The notes beneath the pieces are model-generated. The model was not told the DNA's origin, made no database searches, and saw nothing but the letters and a program-made list of their open reading frames with translations. The position numbers and the translations under genes were made by a program. This document shows, in pieces, positions 46,529 through 60,751 of a stretch of 64,000 bases of DNA (position 1 is the first letter of the stretch; each line of letters begins with the position of its first letter). The stretch is taken from assembly GCA_964393745.1 (NCBI GenBank), contig CAYMVA010000127.1, positions 2,046-66,045 on the forward strand, in the 5' to 3' direction. The DNA is from an uncultured Enterobacteriaceae bacterium (GTDB lineage: Bacteria; Pseudomonadota; Gammaproteobacteria; Burkholderiales; SG8-39).

Positions 46529-47350
46529 ATGCCCGCCTACGCCAGGCCGACCCGCGTCGATGAAGCGCTGAAAGTACTTGCGCAGGGCGGTTGCGCGGTG
46601 CTCGCCGGCGGCACCGACCACTACCCGGCGCGGGTAGGGCGCGCGCCCGACGAAGACATCCTCGACCTCACCGCGATCCGCGAGCTGCGCGGCATCGCCG
46701 AGCGGCGTGACCACTGGCGTATCGGCGCGACCACCACCTGGACGGAGGTGATCGAAGCGAAGCTGCCGCCGCTGTTCGATTGCCTGAAATATGCGGCCCG
46801 CGAAGTAGGCGGCATGCAGATCCAGAACGCGGGCACGGTGGCCGGAAATCTATGCAACGCCTCGCCCGCCGCGGACGGCGTGCCGCCGCTGCTCGCGCTG
46901 GGCGCCAGCGTAGAACTCGCCAGCATTCAACGAAAGCGCACGCTGCCGCTTGCCGAGTTCATCACCGGCCCGAGGAAAACGGCACTGCGCCCGGGCGAGC
47001 TGCTGAGCGCGGTGCTGGTGCCGAAGCCCAAGCACGCCGCTCGCAGCGGCTTCCTCAAGCTCGGCGCGCGCAAGTATCTCGTCATTTCCATCGCCATGGC
47101 GGCCGGGGTGATCGAGCGCGATGGCGGCATCGTGCGCGCGGCGCGCATCGCCGTGGGTGCGTGCTCGCCCGTGGCGAAGCGGCTACCGGCGCTCGAAGCG
47201 GCGTTGATCGGCAAGCCGCTGAGCAGCGATCTGGCGCGGCCCGAGCATCTGGCGGTGCTCGCGCCGATCGACGACGTCCGCGGCAGCGCCGGGTATCGCA
47301 GCGAAGCAGCGCTGGTGCTGGTGCGCCGATTGTTGGACGAGCTCGCATGA
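46529..47350 (+). CDS. Xanthine dehydrogenase family FAD-binding subunit (CoxM/XdhB-like)
   Basis: 273-aa ORF with FAD_binding_5-type motifs (LAGGTD, NAGTVAGNLCNASPAAD) and a C-terminal CO-dehydrogenase flavoprotein domain (DVRGSAGYR). Confidence 0.9.
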   Translation: MPAYARPTRVDEALKVLAQGGCAVLAGGTDHYPARVGRAPDEDILDLTAIRELRGIAERRDHWRIGATTTWTEVIEAKLPPLFDCLKYAAREVGGMQIQNAGTVAGNLCNASPAADGVPPLLALGASVELASIQRKRTLPLAEFITGPRKTALRPGELLSAVLVPKPKHAARSGFLKLGARKYLVISIAMAAGVIERDGGIVRAARIAVGACSPVAKRLPALEAALIGKPLSSDLARPEHLAVLAPIDDVRGSAGYRSEAALVLVRRLLDELA

Positions 47351-50091
47351 ACAAGCCTCGCGCCAAATTCCTCGCCGAGGCGGTTGCCTTCACCGTCAAC
47401 GGCCGCAAGGTGCGCGCCACTTCCGCGCGCGCCGCCCGCCTCGCCGACGTGCTGCGCGACGAGCTCGGCCTCACCGGCACCAAGATCGGCTGCAACGCCG
47501 GCGATTGCGGCGCCTGCACCGTGCTGCTCGATGGCCGCCAGGTGTGCTCGTGCCTCACCGCACTCGGCCAGGTCGAGGGCCGCGAAGTCCTGACCGTCGA
47601 AGGCCTCGCCGCGAAGGGAAAACTTTCCGACCTGCAGGCAGCGTTCCAGAACCACGGCGCTGCGCAGTGCGGCATCTGCACGCCGGCCATGCTGATCGCT
47701 GCGGCGGATCTGCTTGCGCGCAATCCGGACCCAGATGCCGCCGAGGTCCGGGACGCGCTCGGTGGCGTGCTGTGTCGCTGCACCGGCTACCAGAAGATCG
47801 TAGAGGCCGTGCTGGCGGCAAAGTGTAAAGTCACACTTTACACTTTGCCCGCTGCAGGCCGGGCGGTCGGGGCGCGCGCCGGCAAGGTGGACGGCATTGC
47901 CAAGCTCAATGGCACCGAGCGCTACGGCGCCGATGCGATCCCGGCGGACGCGCTCTGGCTGCGCGTCATGCGCTCGCCGCACCATCGCGCGCGCTTCCGC
48001 TTCGGCAACCTCGACGCCTGGCGCCGCGGCCTGCCGGGCATCGAGCGGCTGCTCACCGCTGCCGATGTGCCCTCGAACGGCTTCGGCATCTATCCGCACA
48101 TCAAGGACCAGCCGGTGCTCGCCGCAGGCGAAGCGCGTTTCCGCGGCGAAGCGGTGGCCGCGGTGATCGGCAGCCGCGAAGCGATCGAGCGGCTCGATGC
48201 GAATGCTTTCCCGGTGAGCTGGGAGCCGCTCGAACCGGTGCTAGGCCTCGATGCGGCGATGGCGCCCAAAGCGCCGCGCGTTCAGCCAAACAAACCGGAC
48301 AACTTGCTGCTCGATGGCGGCGTGAGGAAAGGCGATCCCGCCTCCGCATGGGCGCAATGCGCAGCGATCGCGGAGGCGAGCTTCGAGACCGCGTTTGTTG
48401 AGCATGCCTACATCGAGCCCGAAGCCGGCTGGGCGCGGCGCGTCGGCCACCGGATCGAGATCCATGTCTCCACGCAGACGCCTTACATGGACCGCGACGA
48501 GACCGCGCTGGTGATGAAGCTCGAGCCCGAGCAGGTGCGGATCGTGCCGAGCGCGTGCGGCGGCGGCTTCGGCGGCAAGCTCGACATGGCGGTGCAGCCG
48601 CTTATCGCGCTCGGCGCCTGGCTCACGCGCAAGCCCGTCGCCTGCGTGTACACGCGTCCCGAGAGCATGGCTTCGAGCACCAAGCGCCACCCGGCGCGCA
48701 TCCACGCCAAGTTCGGCTGCGATGAGCGCGGGCGATTGCTCGCCTGCGAAATGGATGCGCTCTTCGACACCGGCGCCTACGCTAGCTGGGGTCCGACGGT
48801 CGCGACGCGGGTCCCGATCCACGCCACCGGCCCCTACCTCGTGCCGCACGTAAAGACGCGCGGTCGCGCCTACTTCACGCATTGCCATCCGTCGGGCGCG
48901 TTCCGCGGCTTCGGCGTGCCGCAGGGCGCGATCGCGCACGAAGCGCTCATGGATGAGCTCGCCGACGGCATCGGCATGGACCGGCTCGAGTTCCGGCGCG
49001 TGAACGCGCTCAAAGCGGGTGACGCCACCGCCACCGGCCAGGTGCTCGAGCATTCCGCCGGGCTCGCCGAGTGCCTCGATGCGCTCGAGCCGCATTGGCG
49101 CCGCGCCAGGCGCGAGTGCGAAACGTTCAATGCGAAGCACGCGACGCGCAAGCGCGGCGCCGGCATCGGCTGCATGTGGTACGGCATCGGCAACACCTCG
49201 CTTTCCAACCCTTCGACGATACGCGCCGCCATCCGGCCCGACTGTAAAGTCACGCTTTACAGTGGCGCGGTGGACATCGGCCAGGGCTGCAGCACCACCC
49301 TCACCCAGGTGTGCGCCGATGCGCTCGGCCTGCCGATGCAGGATTTCCACCTCGTCATGGGCGATACCGATCTCACGGCCGACGCGGGCAAGACCTCTGC
49401 CTCGCGCCAAGCCTTCGTCTCGGGCAAGGCGGCCGAGCTCGCGGGGCTGGATCTGCGTCAGAAACTCTTCGCCGCCGCCGGCGCTCCGAACGGCGCATGG
49501 CGCGACCGCGACTACCGGCTCTCGCTCGAAGGCGGCAAGCTGGTGTTCCGCAAAGGTGGCATCACCCATCGCGTGAAGCTGCGCGAGCAATTGATAGGTG
49601 AAGGCTACTTCGATCCTCCGACCAAGCCCTCGGACGCCGACGGACAGGGCGTTCCCTACGCCACTTATGCGTTCGCCGCGCAGGTCGCCGTGGTCGAGGT
49701 GGATCTCGAACTGGGCACCACCAAGGTGCTGCGCATCCACGCCGCGCACGATGTCGGCCGCGCGCTCAACCCGATCCAGGTCGAGGGCCAGATCCAGGGC
49801 GGCGCGGCGCAAGGACTCGGCATGGCGCTAATGGAGGAGTACGTTCCAGGCAAGACCGAGAACCTGCACGACTACCTGATCCCGACCATCGGCGACATGC
49901 CGCAATTCGATTGCATCCTGGTGGAGGACCCCGAGCCGCTCGGTCCCTACGGCGCCAAGGGCGTTGGCGAGCCGGGGTTGATTCCGACCGCGCCGGCGAT
50001 CCTCGGTGCGATCGAGCACGCCACCGGCGTGCGCATGCGCCGCGTACCCGTGCTGCCGCATCGCTTATTGGCAGCGCTGAAAGCCAAATGA
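47347..50091 (+). CDS. Fused [2Fe-2S] + molybdopterin-binding hydroxylase subunit (xanthine dehydrogenase / aldehyde oxidoreductase family)
   Basis: ATG 47347 overlaps the upstream stop (ATGA). The N-terminal part carries two 2Fe-2S motifs (CNAGDCGACTV, CGICTPAM...CRCTGY). A linker of about 12 aa is encoded by a palindromic repeat, followed by a MoCo domain (..GGGFGGK.., ..DIGQG..). About 914 aa as read in this sequence. Confidence 0.85.
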   Translation: MNKPRAKFLAEAVAFTVNGRKVRATSARAARLADVLRDELGLTGTKIGCNAGDCGACTVLLDGRQVCSCLTALGQVEGREVLTVEGLAAKGKLSDLQAAFQNHGAAQCGICTPAMLIAAADLLARNPDPDAAEVRDALGGVLCRCTGYQKIVEAVLAAKCKVTLYTLPAAGRAVGARAGKVDGIAKLNGTERYGADAIPADALWLRVMRSPHHRARFRFGNLDAWRRGLPGIERLLTAADVPSNGFGIYPHIKDQPVLAAGEARFRGEAVAAVIGSREAIERLDANAFPVSWEPLEPVLGLDAAMAPKAPRVQPNKPDNLLLDGGVRKGDPASAWAQCAAIAEASFETAFVEHAYIEPEAGWARRVGHRIEIHVSTQTPYMDRDETALVMKLEPEQVRIVPSACGGGFGGKLDMAVQPLIALGAWLTRKPVACVYTRPESMASSTKRHPARIHAKFGCDERGRLLACEMDALFDTGAYASWGPTVATRVPIHATGPYLVPHVKTRGRAYFTHCHPSGAFRGFGVPQGAIAHEALMDELADGIGMDRLEFRRVNALKAGDATATGQVLEHSAGLAECLDALEPHWRRARRECETFNAKHATRKRGAGIGCMWYGIGNTSLSNPSTIRAAIRPDCKVTLYSGAVDIGQGCSTTLTQVCADALGLPMQDFHLVMGDTDLTADAGKTSASRQAFVSGKAAELAGLDLRQKLFAAAGAPNGAWRDRDYRLSLEGGKLVFRKGGITHRVKLREQLIGEGYFDPPTKPSDADGQGVPYATYAFAAQVAVVEVDLELGTTKVLRIHAAHDVGRALNPIQVEGQIQGGAAQGLGMALMEEYVPGKTENLHDYLIPTIGDMPQFDCILVEDPEPLGPYGAKGVGEPGLIPTAPAILGAIEHATGVRMRRVPVLPHRLLAALKAK
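47821..47855. repeat. 35-nt AT-rich palindromic junction element, copy A (inside the 2Fe-2S/MoCo linker)
   Basis: aagTGTAAAGTcacACTTTACActttgcccgctgc has 9-bp perfect arms (47823..47843). It is 32/35 identical to 60717..60751. Confidence 0.85.
49242..49262. repeat. Related 21-nt perfect palindrome inside the MoCo-domain coding sequence
   Basis: CTGTAAAG-tcacg-CTTTACAG. The core tgtaaagtcacNctttaca differs from copy A at one position and encodes the same CKVTLY peptide. Confidence 0.8.
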
Positions 50092-57398: not shown

Positions 57399-58092
57399 GG
57401 TAAAGGGCCTCAACGCGGCCTACGGCCGGGCGCACATCCTCTACGACCTCGCGCTCGAGGCGCGCGCCGGCGAAGTGGTGGTGCTGCTCGGCAGGAACGG
57501 CGCCGGCAAATCCACCACCCTCAAGACGCTCATGGGGCTGGTGCGCCCGCTCTCGGGCGAGCTCCGCTTCGATGGCGCGCGCATCGACCGCCTGCCGCCT
57601 TTCCAGATCGCGCGCCTCGGGCTGGGCTACGTGCCCGAGGACCGGCGCATTTTCACCGATCTCACGGTGGCGGAAAACCTCGAGGTCGGCCGCCAAGCGG
57701 CGCGCCCGGGCGTTGCCGGCTGGACGCCCGAGAAACTGTTCGCCCTGTTCCCCAACCTCGGCCGCATGCGCGAACGGCGCGGCGCCCGCATGTCGGGTGG
57801 CGAGCAGCAGATGTTGACCATCGCGCGCACTCTGATGGGCAACCCGCGCGCCGTGCTGCTCGACGAGCCTTCCGAGGGCCTCGCGCCGGTGATCGTGGAA
57901 GGCATCGCCGGCACCATCCGCGAGCTCAAGCGCGAGGGCCTGTGCGTGCTGCTGTGCGAGCAGAACCTGCATTTCGCGCACGCGGTCGCCGACCGCGCCT
58001 ACATCGTGGAGAAAGGCCACATCCGCTACGCCGGAACCATGGCGGAGCTGGAAGCCAACCCCGCGGTGCGCGAGCAGTACTTATCGGTGTGA
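57391..58092 (+). CDS. ABC transporter ATP-binding protein (LivF-like)
   Basis: 233-aa ORF with Walker A GRNGAGKST, signature MSGGEQQML and Walker B VLLDEPSEGL. Confidence 0.9.
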   Translation: MLEVKGLNAAYGRAHILYDLALEARAGEVVVLLGRNGAGKSTTLKTLMGLVRPLSGELRFDGARIDRLPPFQIARLGLGYVPEDRRIFTDLTVAENLEVGRQAARPGVAGWTPEKLFALFPNLGRMRERRGARMSGGEQQMLTIARTLMGNPRAVLLDEPSEGLAPVIVEGIAGTIRELKREGLCVLLCEQNLHFAHAVADRAYIVEKGHIRYAGTMAELEANPAVREQYLSV

Positions 58093-58109
58093 TAGACTAC
58101 ACTTTGACC
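58087..58109. repeat. Degenerate copy of the junction element at the livF-like gene end
   Basis: GTGTGAtAGACTACACTTTGACC compares with GTGTAAagtgAGACTttACACTTTGGCC of copy C. As in copy C, the upstream gene ends with GTG + stop inside the element. Confidence 0.5.
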
Positions 58110-58122
58110 ATAATTCTGGTCA
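58105..58122 (+). promoter_or_regulatory. Perfect inverted repeat upstream of the antitoxin gene (candidate TA operator; overlaps a TTGACC -35-like hexamer)
   Basis: TGACCA-TAATTC-TGGTCA ends 19 nt upstream of the antitoxin ATG. The GAAAGGA Shine-Dalgarno follows. Confidence 0.5.
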
Positions 58123-58140
58123 TCTAGAGAAAGGAACGCC

Positions 58141-58437
58141 ATGGACCGCGTGCTGCCGATTTCCGAAGTGAAAGCAAGGCTTCCCGAACTGGTCTCCGAC
58201 GTCCAGGACAAGGACGAGACCATCATCGTCACGCGCAACGGCCGGCCTGCCGCGGTGCTGGTCAATCACGCCGAGTACGAGAGTCTCAAGGAAACGCTCG
58301 ACGTGCTGAGCGACCCCGACCTGATGAACCAGATCCGCGAAAGCCGCGCCTATTACCGCGCGGGCGGCAAGGGCCTCTCGTTCGAGGACGTGTTCGGCGA
58401 GCCTCTCGTCCCGGCGAGGCGCCGTCGCCGGAAATGA
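58141..58437 (+). CDS. Type II antitoxin, Phd/YefM family
   Basis: 98-aa ORF starting MDRVLPISEVKARLPELVSDVQDKDETIIVTRNGRPAAVLV..., a canonical Phd/YefM N-terminal domain. It overlaps the toxin gene by 4 nt. Confidence 0.88.
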   Translation: MDRVLPISEVKARLPELVSDVQDKDETIIVTRNGRPAAVLVNHAEYESLKETLDVLSDPDLMNQIRESRAYYRAGGKGLSFEDVFGEPLVPARRRRRK

Positions 58438-58718
58438 GTCTTTATCGAGTCGAGATCCCGCCCCGGGTCGCCGAGTTCATCCGCCATCTCGAACCGCAGC
58501 TGAAGCAGAGGATCCGGGCGGCGCTGCGCACGCTGGCAGCCGATCCCGCGCGCGGCGAACCCTTGAAGAGGGACCTCAGTGAATATCGCAAATACCGGGT
58601 GGGACGCTTCCGGATCGTGTACGCGCGGGACGCAAAAGGCCGGGTTGTCCGCATCATGGCTGTGGGCCAGCGGCGCAGGGTCTACGAAGAACTGGCAAGG
58701 ATGGTGAAGGCGCGATGA
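58434..58718 (+). CDS. Type II toxin, RelE/ParE family
   Basis: 94-aa ORF with ..YRKYRVGRFRIVYARDAKGRVVRIMAVGQRRRVYE.., typical of the RelE/ParE fold. It sits directly downstream of the antitoxin. Confidence 0.85.
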   Translation: MSLYRVEIPPRVAEFIRHLEPQLKQRIRAALRTLAADPARGEPLKRDLSEYRKYRVGRFRIVYARDAKGRVVRIMAVGQRRRVYEELARMVKAR

Positions 58719-60724
58719 ACTGGATCGCTGGCGTCGACGTAGGCGGCACCTTCACCGACCTGATCGCGCTCGACGCCGCCTCGGGCGAGATGCGCCTCGC
58801 CAAGGTGCCGACTACGCCGGGCAACCAGGCTTTCGGCGTGCTCGCCGCGCTCGACGAGGTGAAGCTCGCGCTCGACCAGCTCGCGCTGGTGGTACATGGC
58901 ACGACCACCACCACCAACGCGCTGCTCGAGCGCAAGCTCGCGAAAACCGGGCTCGTCACCACCAAGGGCTTTCGCGACGTGCTCGAGCTCGGCCGGCGCA
59001 CGCGCCCCAGCCCCTACGGACTGCGCGGCTGGTTCGAGCCCCTGATCCCGCGCGAGCTGCGGCTGGAAGTCGCCGGCCGCATGGACGCCGAAGGTGCCGA
59101 GGTGACGCCGCTAGACGAGGCAGCGGTGCACGATGCGGTGAAACGGCTTGCCACCGCGGGTTGCGAGTCGCTGGTGATCCATTTCCTGCACAGCTACATC
59201 AATCCTGCGCACGAGCAGCGCGCGCTCGCGATAGCGCGCGAGCTGTGGCCCAACCGCTACATCACCGCAGGCCACACCCTGCTGTCCGAATACCGCGAAT
59301 ACGAGCGCGGCGTCACCGCCGCGGTGAACGCCTCGGTGCAGCCGATTCTCGACCGCTACCTGAAGAAACTCTCGGAAGAACTGAAAGCACGCGGCTTCGC
59401 CAATGACCTGCTCGTGATGCAGGGCAACGGCGGCACGGTCTCGGCTGCGCTCGCCACCGACGCCGCGGTGAACACCGTCATGTCGGGCCCCGCCTCCGGC
59501 GTGATCGCTGCTGCCTACTCGTCCGCTGCAGCCGGCTACCCGCACGCGATCAGCTACGACATGGGCGGCACCTCGACCGACGTCGGCTTGATCCTCGAGG
59601 GGGTGCCGCAGGTGTCCTCCGAGCTCGAGATCGAATACGCGATGCCGGTGCACGTGCCGATGGTGGACGTGCACTCCATCGGCGCCGGCGGCGGCTCGAT
59701 CGCGTTTCTCGGCGAGGACGGCATGTTGAAGGTCGGGCCGCGCAGCGCCGGCGCGCATCCCGGCCCGATCTGCTACGGCCGCGGCGGCACCGAGCCCACC
59801 ATTACCGATGCCAACCTGCTGCTCGGCCGGCTGAACCCGGAGAAGCTGCTTGGCGTCAGCGGCCGCGCCGACCTTAAGGCGATCGGGACAATCTTTCTTG
59901 ATAAGCTCGGCCGGCCCCTCGGCCTCGATGCCACGGAGACCGCCGCCGCGATCGTGCGCATCGCCAACGACAAGATGGCGGGCGCGATCCGCATGGTGTC
60001 GCTCGCGCGCGGCCACGACCCGCGCGACTTCGTGCTGTTTCCGTTCGGCGGCGCAGGCCCGCTGCACGCCGCCGCGCTCGCGCGCGAACTCGGCATCCCG
60101 AAGCTGCTGGTGCCGGCGCGCCCCGGCATCACCAACGCGCTCGGCTGCGTGGTCGCCGATTTGCGGCACGACTACGTGAACACGGTGAACAAGCCCGTCG
60201 AGGCCGTAACCGCCGGGGAAATCGCCGCCATCCTCAAAGCGCAGATCGAAAGCGGCAAGCGGCTGCTCGAGCGCGAAGGCGTCGCCATCGAGGGCGTGCG
60301 CCTGCTGCACTCGGCCGACATGCAGTTCCAGGGCCAGAGCCACATCCTCAGCGTCGCGCTTCCCGGGACCGAGGTCTCGCGCGAGCAGCTGCAGGCGTTG
60401 TTCGATCGCGCCTACTGGAATCGCTTCGAAGTCGAGCTGCCCGAAATCCGCGCCGTGCTCGTCAATTTGCATACCGCGGTGATCGGCCTGCGGCCGCGTT
60501 TCGACCTGGGGATTCTTTCCGGCAAGCGCGCCGCAGCCGCCGCGGCGCAGCGCGAGGTGTGGTTCGATGGCGGTTGGCGCAAGACGCCGGTCTACCGGCG
60601 CGAAAACCTGCCCGCTGCGCTCGACGGCCCGGCGATCATCGAGCAGCTCGACTGCACCACCGTGCTCGAACCCGGCAACCGGGCGCGCGTCGACGCGCTC
60701 GGCAACCTGCTGGTCGAAGTGTAA
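58715..60724 (+). CDS. Hydantoinase/oxoprolinase family protein, A subunit (HyuA-like, ATP-dependent)
   Basis: 669-aa ORF starting IAGVDVGGTFTDLIA, with later DMGGTSTDV motifs of the hydantoinase_A family. The ATG overlaps the toxin stop (ATGA). Confidence 0.9.
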   Translation: MNWIAGVDVGGTFTDLIALDAASGEMRLAKVPTTPGNQAFGVLAALDEVKLALDQLALVVHGTTTTTNALLERKLAKTGLVTTKGFRDVLELGRRTRPSPYGLRGWFEPLIPRELRLEVAGRMDAEGAEVTPLDEAAVHDAVKRLATAGCESLVIHFLHSYINPAHEQRALAIARELWPNRYITAGHTLLSEYREYERGVTAAVNASVQPILDRYLKKLSEELKARGFANDLLVMQGNGGTVSAALATDAAVNTVMSGPASGVIAAAYSSAAAGYPHAISYDMGGTSTDVGLILEGVPQVSSELEIEYAMPVHVPMVDVHSIGAGGGSIAFLGEDGMLKVGPRSAGAHPGPICYGRGGTEPTITDANLLLGRLNPEKLLGVSGRADLKAIGTIFLDKLGRPLGLDATETAAAIVRIANDKMAGAIRMVSLARGHDPRDFVLFPFGGAGPLHAAALARELGIPKLLVPARPGITNALGCVVADLRHDYVNTVNKPVEAVTAGEIAAILKAQIESGKRLLEREGVAIEGVRLLHSADMQFQGQSHILSVALPGTEVSREQLQALFDRAYWNRFEVELPEIRAVLVNLHTAVIGLRPRFDLGILSGKRAAAAAAQREVWFDGGWRKTPVYRRENLPAALDGPAIIEQLDCTTVLEPGNRARVDALGNLLVEV

Positions 60725-60751
60725 AGTGAGACTTTACACTTTGGCCGCTGC
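60717..60751. repeat. 35-nt AT-rich palindromic junction element, copy C (hyuA stop / hyuA-hyuB spacer)
   Basis: aagTGTAAAGTgagACTTTACActttggccgctgc has 9-bp perfect arms (60719..60739). The hyuA stop codon TAA (60722..60724) lies in the left arm. Confidence 0.85.

Follow-up and report, generated by a model that had tools for sequence, protein, structure and literature searches.

A stretch of 64,000 nucleotides from an uncultured bacterium (contig CAYMVA010000127.1 of assembly GCA_964393745.1), referred to here as the window, contains a gene for a molybdenum-cofactor hydroxylase in which a short AT-rich palindrome, site B, is written in frame into a conserved strand of the encoded enzyme. An earlier note on this DNA had singled out the palindrome and argued that selection, or gene conversion, acts there on the nucleotide motif. 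We find that site B belongs to a dispersed family of AT-rich dyads, of which it is an intragenic copy reduced to the core, that no insertion or deletion accompanies it among orthologous genes, that its synonymous sites are conserved in related genes, and that the motif is found again, at B and at a further site of the gene (A), in a second lineage. The features on which the analysis turns are as follows.

47347-50091, + strand: host gene, 914 amino acids, a fused hydroxylase with [2Fe-2S] (Fer2, Fer2_2), a/b-hammerhead, MoCoBD_1 and MoCoBD_2 domains
47817-47849, + strand: site A, a 33-bp palindrome free of mismatches, GGCAAAGTGTAAAGT-CAC-ACTTTACACTTTGCC, beyond which imperfect arms reach to 47810-47856
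49241-49263, + strand: site B, a 23-bp AT-rich dyad in frame, comprising codons 633-639 (CKVTLYS) and the last two bases of Asp632
60718-60740, + strand: site C, a family core, AGTGTAAAGT-GAG-ACTTTACACT, at a cistron junction
46529-47350, + strand: upstream gene, 273 amino acids, joined to the host gene by an ATGA overlap

The Pfam domains of the host protein place it in the xanthine dehydrogenase / aldehyde oxidoreductase family, with Fer2_2 (PF01799, 93 bits), Ald_Xan_dh_C (PF01315, 36.5), MoCoBD_1 (PF02738, 240) and MoCoBD_2 (PF20256, 236) all above their cut-offs. Its top PDB match is 1sij/1vlb (E = 1e-116, residues 15-913), the aldehyde oxidoreductase of Desulfovibrio gigas, which is the closest solved structure, has the same domain fusion, and carries the strand D-G-T-I-T-V at the position of site B, in keeping with the pattern D-G-x-[VI]-T-[VL]. 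Site B occupies a beta-turn and strand (D-G-x-V-T-L-Y-S-G) early in MoCoBD_2.

Site B reads ACTGTAAAG-TCACG-CTTTACAGT and stands in the frame GAC TGT AAA GTC ACG CTT TAC AGT GGC (49240-49266); in the register of the family described below it is spelled ACTGTAAAGT-CAC-GCTTTACAGT. The palindrome reported at 49242-49262 is indeed perfect, as its arms, CTGTAAAG (49242-49249) and CTTTACAG (49255-49262), are exact reverse complements flanking TCACG. A49241 and T49263 add a ninth pair outside them and so give perfect arms of 9 bp, or 10 pairs when the site is taken as RNA and a U-G wobble is counted. The earlier note had also assigned the reading frame correctly, with cysteine as codon 633, and had rightly seen that a single base separates the site from copy A, where the 19-mer at 47824 has TCACA in place of TCACG. 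The window has three matches to TGTAAAG-N5-CTTTACA, namely at 47824 (A), 49243 (B) and 60720 (C). Shuffling the window sequence yielded 0.01-0.03 matches against the 3-4 observed, and none of 100 shuffles reached three.

Several of the codons that spell site B are rare in its own gene. With both palindromes excluded, TGT encodes 1 of 21 cysteines, CTT 4 of 84 leucines and AGT none of 26 serines, while AAA is used at 10 of 35 positions; of the four codons that had been called rare, the first three are so and AAA is hardly rare. If the peptide CKVTLYS is taken as fixed and its codons are drawn as the gene uses them outside the palindromes, the seven codons of site B together have a probability of 1.3e-6. 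Four or more A/T-ending codons per seven are found at sites A and B and in one further patch, and nowhere else in the gene. That patch (49582-49617, codons 746-757, gag caa ttg ata ggt gaa ggc tac ttc gat cct) falls in a loop of variable length among orthologues and bears no resemblance to the palindrome family.

Comparison with orthologous genes shows how the palindrome sits in the protein. No insertion or deletion is present at residues 632-639 in any of 169 orthologous loci, which agrees with the earlier view that site B is not an insertion. Over 24 nucleotides, five loci lie at a distance of 0-2 from the window sequence and the other 164 at 7-17, with no intermediates. The DNA of the sister clade aligns with the window codon for codon at site A as well as at site B, and at site B the closest palindrome-free genes read GAC TGC GCG CTC ACC CTC TAC AGC in L075, GAT TGC AGG CTC ACC CTC TAC AGC in L240, GGG GCG AAG CTC ACG CTC TAC AGC in L241 and GAT GGC CGG TTG ACC CTC TAC AGC in L242. 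Residue 633 is glycine in 161 of the 169 orthologues, cysteine in seven and alanine in one, so glycine is ancestral, as had been proposed. The change to cysteine is, however, not tied to the palindrome: because L075 and L240 have Cys633, encoded by TGC, without the motif, cysteine probably arose first. Of the 15 bases that make up the loop and right arm, 13 are already provided by the conserved V/L-T-L-Y-S codons (GTC ACG CTC TAC AGC), which explains why this position was struck, and the left arm is written into the two variable turn residues. At site A the sister clade has K-R-K-V-A-L-A-R (in L240, AAG CGC AAG GTC GCG CTC GCC CGG) against K-C-K-V-T-L-Y-T in the carriers, a net length change of 0 or +1 codon. 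The family motif is absent from the ~1.17 Mb of orthologous loci outside L155-L159, and a metagenome scan for closer relatives gave none above 80% identity among the matches listed.

Evidence for a role of the nucleotides themselves comes from silent positions. Four metagenomic genes, in L155-L158 (93, 88, 86 and 86% protein identity), form a monophyletic group with the window gene (support 100/99), and all five carry palindromes A and B. At site B, three of the four match the window in all seven codons, and L157 has AAG for AAA as its sole difference. In the rest of the gene, A/T-ending window codons whose residue is unchanged are kept at 52% (L155), 24%, 17% and 15%. Among 96 A/T-ending codons whose residue is conserved in the five genes, nine are identical in all five, and seven of these nine belong to the palindromes: TGT160, AAA161, CTT164, ACT166, TGT633, CTT637 and AGT639 (7/9 within the palindromes, 2/87 elsewhere; Fisher p = 1e-7). 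The rare codons TGT, CTT and AGT are therefore kept in four further genes at 86-93% identity, and site B is not an isolated case set among orthologues that all use ordinary codons. Together with the lack of length change, this pattern supports the suggestion of selection or gene conversion, and argues for a nucleotide-level constraint that would act at site B on top of the constraint on the protein.

The site B sequence is also present in freshwater sediment metagenomes. A run of this kind labelled as metagenomic RNA-Seq yielded a 155-nucleotide contig identical to window positions 49191-49345, across site B, which suggests that the host gene is transcribed in situ, though DNA carry-over could give the same contig. 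Strain-level contigs from three metagenome runs showed no variant at 49235-49310 among the best 40 of 62 differences in 49000-49500, a null result that adds little as the invariant stretch around these positions is long. The 273-amino-acid gene upstream of the host gene has as its counterpart in orthologous loci an FAD-binding subunit, with PF00941 and PF03450 matches in the L155 and L157 equivalents.

Site B shares its core, A-G-TGTAAAGT-N3-ACTTTACA-C-T, with sites A and C, and these three window copies compare with ~0.03 expected by chance. Scanning one genome per species with the 21-mer GTGTAAAGT-N3-ACTTTACAC gave matches on dozens of contigs of one related metagenome-assembled genome (MAG) of 70% GC, CAZVHU01, whose label Enterobacteriaceae does not suit its base composition. 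A stricter pattern that includes the flanks was found in CAZVHU01 alone among 185,579 species representatives. After duplicate removal there are at least 37 high-GC copies, the window's three included, with the consensus ggccg(a/g)-A-G-TGTAAAGT-N3-ACTTTACA-C-T-(t/c)cggcc. All 37 copies have A..T at positions -11/+11, which were not part of the search pattern, and 35-36 have G..C at -10/+10. Half-sites stand almost always in pairs, with 70 within palindromes against three single ones in 219 kb and no single one in the window.

Family copies usually lie 22-25 nucleotides past a stop codon, or supply the stop through their own TAA (9/37). Site C is of the latter kind, its TAA (60722-60724) ending the upstream hydantoinase-A-like gene (58715-60724). 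The full-length elements of CAZVHU01, ~65 bp long, fit exactly between or after gene ends (for example L029:3926, L041:5110 and L062:1320), with stop codons (G-TAG or G-TGA) 22-25 nucleotides from the core on one or both sides. Site A, by comparison, is translated in frame, as KCKVTLYTL, within the linker that joins the 2Fe-2S to the Mo-cofactor domains in the host gene. Site B is a core-only copy that departs from the consensus at -10 and +10 (C..G for G..C) and at +2 (G for A). The exchange at -10/+10 follows from the coding context, because no Asp codon has G in third place and the second base of Ser AGY is G. The otherwise unused AGT codon is explained by the invariant T at +11 of the family, and the A at -11 is drawn from GAC.

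Two further observations concern similar repeats. Within 58087-58718, the sequence GGTGTGATAGACTACACTTTGACC, found after the stop codon of a livF-like gene, resembles an eroded family copy that has retained the right arm ACACTTTG.CC. It overlaps another perfect inverted repeat, TGACCATAATTCTGGTCA, ahead of genes for a Phd/YefM-like antitoxin (58141-58437) and a RelE/ParE-like toxin (58434-58718). The same 21-mer, as GTGTAAAGTG(A/T)CACTTTACAC, is present in multiple copies, often paired ~100 nucleotides apart, in MAGs of the candidate phyla radiation labelled Saccharibacteria (33% GC; L005 and L008). In one case, an intergenic site that is orthologous between the two carries a lone palindrome in L005 (3509-3529), and L008 (3660-3778) has 98 extra bases there, consisting of a second palindrome and 77 nucleotides, so that the insert is bracketed by two palindrome copies, as integration at a palindrome would leave it.

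How the motif came to be written can be judged best at site A. Copy A shares 39 consecutive identical bases, ggcggcaaagTGTAAAGTCACACTTTACActttgcccgc, with a copy in another MAG (L037) that lies at the end of an unrelated flavoprotein-like gene (C-terminal ...RGAHFREDFPQ...), where the TAA of the motif is the stop codon. Exact sharing of this length is not attainable by point mutation, and copy A thus records templated copying between loci. Site B is in frame with A, 1,419 bp further downstream, and is identical over the 19-mer to the A copies of L155, L157 and L158; together with the gap in the 24-nucleotide distances, these features indirectly suggest a templated origin for it as well.

The two sites were also struck in a second gene lineage. 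L159 (P0013, 80% identity) reads TGT AAA GTG ACG CTT TAC AGC at site B and GGT GAG GTC ACG CGT TAC GCT at site A, the latter being a decayed copy five AT-to-GC changes away from the motif, and L243, its nearest relative, has nothing similar at either site. With both sites masked, an approximately unbiased (AU) test rejected a clade of P0013 with the five carriers (difference in log-likelihood 45.5, p = 0.0003), and so a single origin of all palindromes including that of L159, although this group was named only after the tree had been inspected, which weakens the test. A long recombination tract as the source of the L159 motif was likewise ruled out, by sliding-window identity and a base-by-base view: less than ~30 nucleotides from site B, L159 is back to its own lineage, with TCG AAC ACG ATC like L243 against TGC AGC ACC ACC in the clade. 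On these alignments the motif of L159 would have arisen either by independent writing at both predisposed sites or by transfer of patches of ~20-30 nucleotides, and either way the core itself would be the unit of change.

A candidate for the protein that reads such a core is suggested by the promoters of higBA toxin-antitoxin loci. The dyad at site B, TGTAAA-GTCACGC-TTTACA, fits the class TGTAAR-N7-YTTACA. In singleton hits from other phyla, the exact 21-mer of the family scan lies directly upstream of higB-higA in L040 (Azospirillum) and in L036 and L042 (Bacteroidota), between the -35 box and the higB start codon, and also precedes a HigA fusion in L054; the antitoxins of all four loci score above the TIGR02607 cut-off. 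A further set of 76 alphaproteobacterial higBA loci includes 23 with an exact TGTAAR-N7-YTTACA in the 140 nucleotides before higB, which amounts to 25 promoter dyads, with one dyad anywhere else in the loci, and the half-sites vary together (AAAG/CTTT versus AAGG/CCTT). This enrichment before higB makes the dyad the predicted operator of this HigA group. Because site B belongs to the same dyad class, its reader would most likely be a dimeric helix-turn-helix (HTH) protein of the HigA/XRE type. Site B does not share the promoter position of these operators, lying instead at codon 633 of an enzyme gene.

The 21-mer was also seen in other settings. In Myxococcales MAGs and Plesiocystis (L013:4451, L061:4956, L034:1997 and L007:4781) it occupies the divergent spacer between TldD-like and ferredoxin-reductase-like genes, where it is probably the operator of another regulator. 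In two related Sulfurovum / Campylobacterales MAGs (L016:1219 and L063:4618) it lies ~47 nucleotides upstream of a gene for a MerR-like HTH protein.

We propose that site B was formed through base replacement rather than insertion, at the turn and strand D-G-x-V-T-L-Y-S-G. Two tolerant turn residues would have been recoded to TGT AAA, supplying the left arm, and the probable source would be a short templated patch, delivered by gene conversion or a template switch, with copy A, which lies 1.4 kb upstream, or some other member of the family as the donor. Thereafter the 23 bases may have been held against the GC pressure of the genome by a nucleotide-level constraint, the likeliest reader being a dimeric HTH protein of HigA/XRE type, bound to the site as double-stranded DNA. 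The identity of this reader is inferred, as are the templated origin of site B and any effect on the host gene. For the explanation in its entirety (a family member, overwritten in place, constrained at the nucleotide level and read by an HTH dimer) our confidence is slightly better than even.

Several points weigh against this explanation. A HigA or HigB homologue was not found in the window, where hmmsearch for HigA gave no hit below E = 3, and there is no HigA or XRE gene either in the window or in the ~220 kb around the family copies of CAZVHU01. Site B lacks three of the 20 specified consensus positions, so binding to it may be weak. The G at +2 and the loop appear ancestral at both sites, which speaks against one continuous tract and means that point substitutions in the arms fit equally well. 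To these may be added the post hoc grouping in the AU test, the possibility that recurrent re-conversion mimics purifying selection with no benefit to the host, and the fact that a hairpin in the sense strand tolerates, through wobble pairing, every departure seen: the innermost U-G pair, the G-U pair of L157, and the loop and end-pair changes of L159.

A first rival reading gives the family no host function. Biased short-patch conversion or template switching would spread the repeats and keep copies uniform, near-cognate sequences would be converted repeatedly, and intragenic copies would survive only at positions that the protein can tolerate, with no protein or RNA function of site B under selection. 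The 39 nucleotides shared exactly between unrelated loci, the common flank consensus of the 37 copies and the repeated strike at two predisposed sites are all expected of such a drive, as is the bimodal distribution of 24-nucleotide distances with no intermediates. Both arm variants of site A (gcaaag..ctttgc and gcgaag..cttcgc) are common family subtypes, and the five AT-to-GC changes in copy A of L159 are the decay that should follow once re-conversion ends. Set against this, the flanks of site A have diverged within the clade while the core is intact, where full-length donors would leave another pattern. The core is moreover identical across genomes and in the higBA operators of other phyla, which points to a fixed reader specificity, and no mechanism is known for ectopic conversion seeded by merely 14-16 matching bases. 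We regard spread by drive alone as unlikely, if still a serious contender.

A selected hairpin, in mRNA or single-stranded DNA, would slow ribosomes or block exonucleases at defined points: a domain boundary (A), a cistron boundary (C) and early MoCoBD_2 (B). Predicted RNA folds are far more stable than those of shuffled sequences at each of them (B, -19.7 kcal/mol, z = -3.7; A, -37.9, z = -7.1; C, -24.2, z = -5.8), L156 has, at position 13 of site A, a paired change that preserves the stem, one relaxed family copy has C-G for T-A at position 2, and repetitive extragenic palindromes (REPs) are known as RNA elements (PMC3733652). With the wobble tolerance noted above, an RNA reader is conceivable. 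However, the arms show no variation in sequence, whereas compensatory changes should let a pure stem drift, and the flanks do not covary copy by copy (6.35 with a copy's own partner against 6.31 with those of other copies, permutation p = 0.46). The same sequence serves in higBA promoters as a double-stranded operator, site B falls at no domain boundary, and no Rfam family matched over 46-62 kb of the window. Taken together, a hairpin seems an improbable object of selection here. Chance, by which CKVTLYS would be palindromic in this strain and its closest relatives without nucleotide constraint, draws on the conserved V-T-L-Y-S protein motif, whose usual codons pre-spell most of the loop and right arm, and on an AAA codon that is not rare, and is refuted, to a negligible residue, by the codon probability given the peptide, the window copy count, the conservation of silent sites in the two palindromes and the recurrence in an independent lineage.

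Dispersed bacterial palindromes are usually seen as intergenic insertions with fast turnover. Site B lies in a conserved enzyme strand with protein length kept, and is maintained at silent positions in genes whose proteins differ by 7-14%, as a second code overlapping the protein code. For annotation this carries a warning, since CKVTLY-like peptides in unrelated proteins of one clade may be the footprints of a DNA repeat and not protein motifs. Site B further offers a defined object of 23 bases for asking how repeats are written (by templated patch or point mutation), what reads them (an HTH dimer or an RNA hairpin) and whether an operator of the antitoxin kind can turn into a site spread over the genome. 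One extension of the proposed explanation, which we advance tentatively and consider doubtful, is a process of operator writing in this uncultured Burkholderiales-like clade, in which DNA already resembling a HigA operator would be converted repeatedly, and independently in separate lineages, to a perfect dyad by templated patches of ~20-40 nucleotides, even within protein strands that look essential, and then held by its reader. If true, repeats would here spread in a new way that is distinct both from transposition and from simple point-mutation drive, and there would be a new route by which a toxin-antitoxin regulator gains sites genome-wide.

Among known systems, the DNA uptake sequences (DUS) of Neisseria, the uptake signal sequences (USS) of Haemophilus and the cyanobacterial palindrome HIP1 have spread by base substitution, at tolerant coding positions and in preferred frames; related species share them, and past the ends of genes they are frequently arranged as inverted pairs. 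DUS and USS occur mostly as single short motifs, in either orientation. The present family shares with DUS and USS coding-region copies that have arisen by substitution and are conserved in orthologues. It differs in that the complete dyad is always the unit, and the near absence of single half-sites led us to reject a single uptake motif of this kind. Intergenic copies also share flanks of at least 20 nucleotides, and one pair has 39 nucleotides exactly in common, which calls for copying and not independent point mutation. Quasipalindrome template switching (the Ripley model) perfects an imperfect inverted repeat by clustered changes in one event, with length kept. In its classical form the process takes one arm at the locus itself as template and so gives palindromes of arbitrary sequence; here the same family sequence appears every time, for which either an ectopic template or selection for that sequence is required.

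HigA dimers bind a pair of inverted repeats belonging to one operator, as at O1/O2 of the Proteus vulgaris Rts1 hig locus (PMC12266136). With the operators of the TIGR02607 group the family has the dyad class TGTAAR-N7-YTTACA in common, but site B is inside an enzyme gene with no higBA nearby, and the family runs to tens to hundreds of copies per genome. REPs, including intragenic ones, carry GTAG or CGTC tags, and their intragenic copies are insertions that add 20-30 residues (Di Nocera et al. 2013, PMC3733652). Both kinds of repeat are short, high-copy palindromes that lie mainly just past coding regions, where element ends or cores give stop codons, and both have some copies within genes for known proteins, often in linkers (PMC3733652). 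The present family is set apart by an AT-rich core in a genome of 67-70% GC, by intragenic copies that are equal-length replacements, and by conservation of copies at orthologous positions down to 86% protein identity. Membership in the GTAG-tagged REPs was rejected, as GTAG stands at a fixed distance in seven of 74 family arms and GTGA in six, these being the stop codons of neighbouring genes, and CGTC showed no positional preference. Rickettsia palindromic elements (cited in PMC3733652) are in-frame insertions that lengthen the protein; they resemble sites A and B as palindromic repeats translated within a functional protein, and differ from them in that neither site lengthens its protein. 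The repeats are best described as a tag-less, operator-like palindrome family whose intragenic members overwrite coding sequence and do not insert into it.

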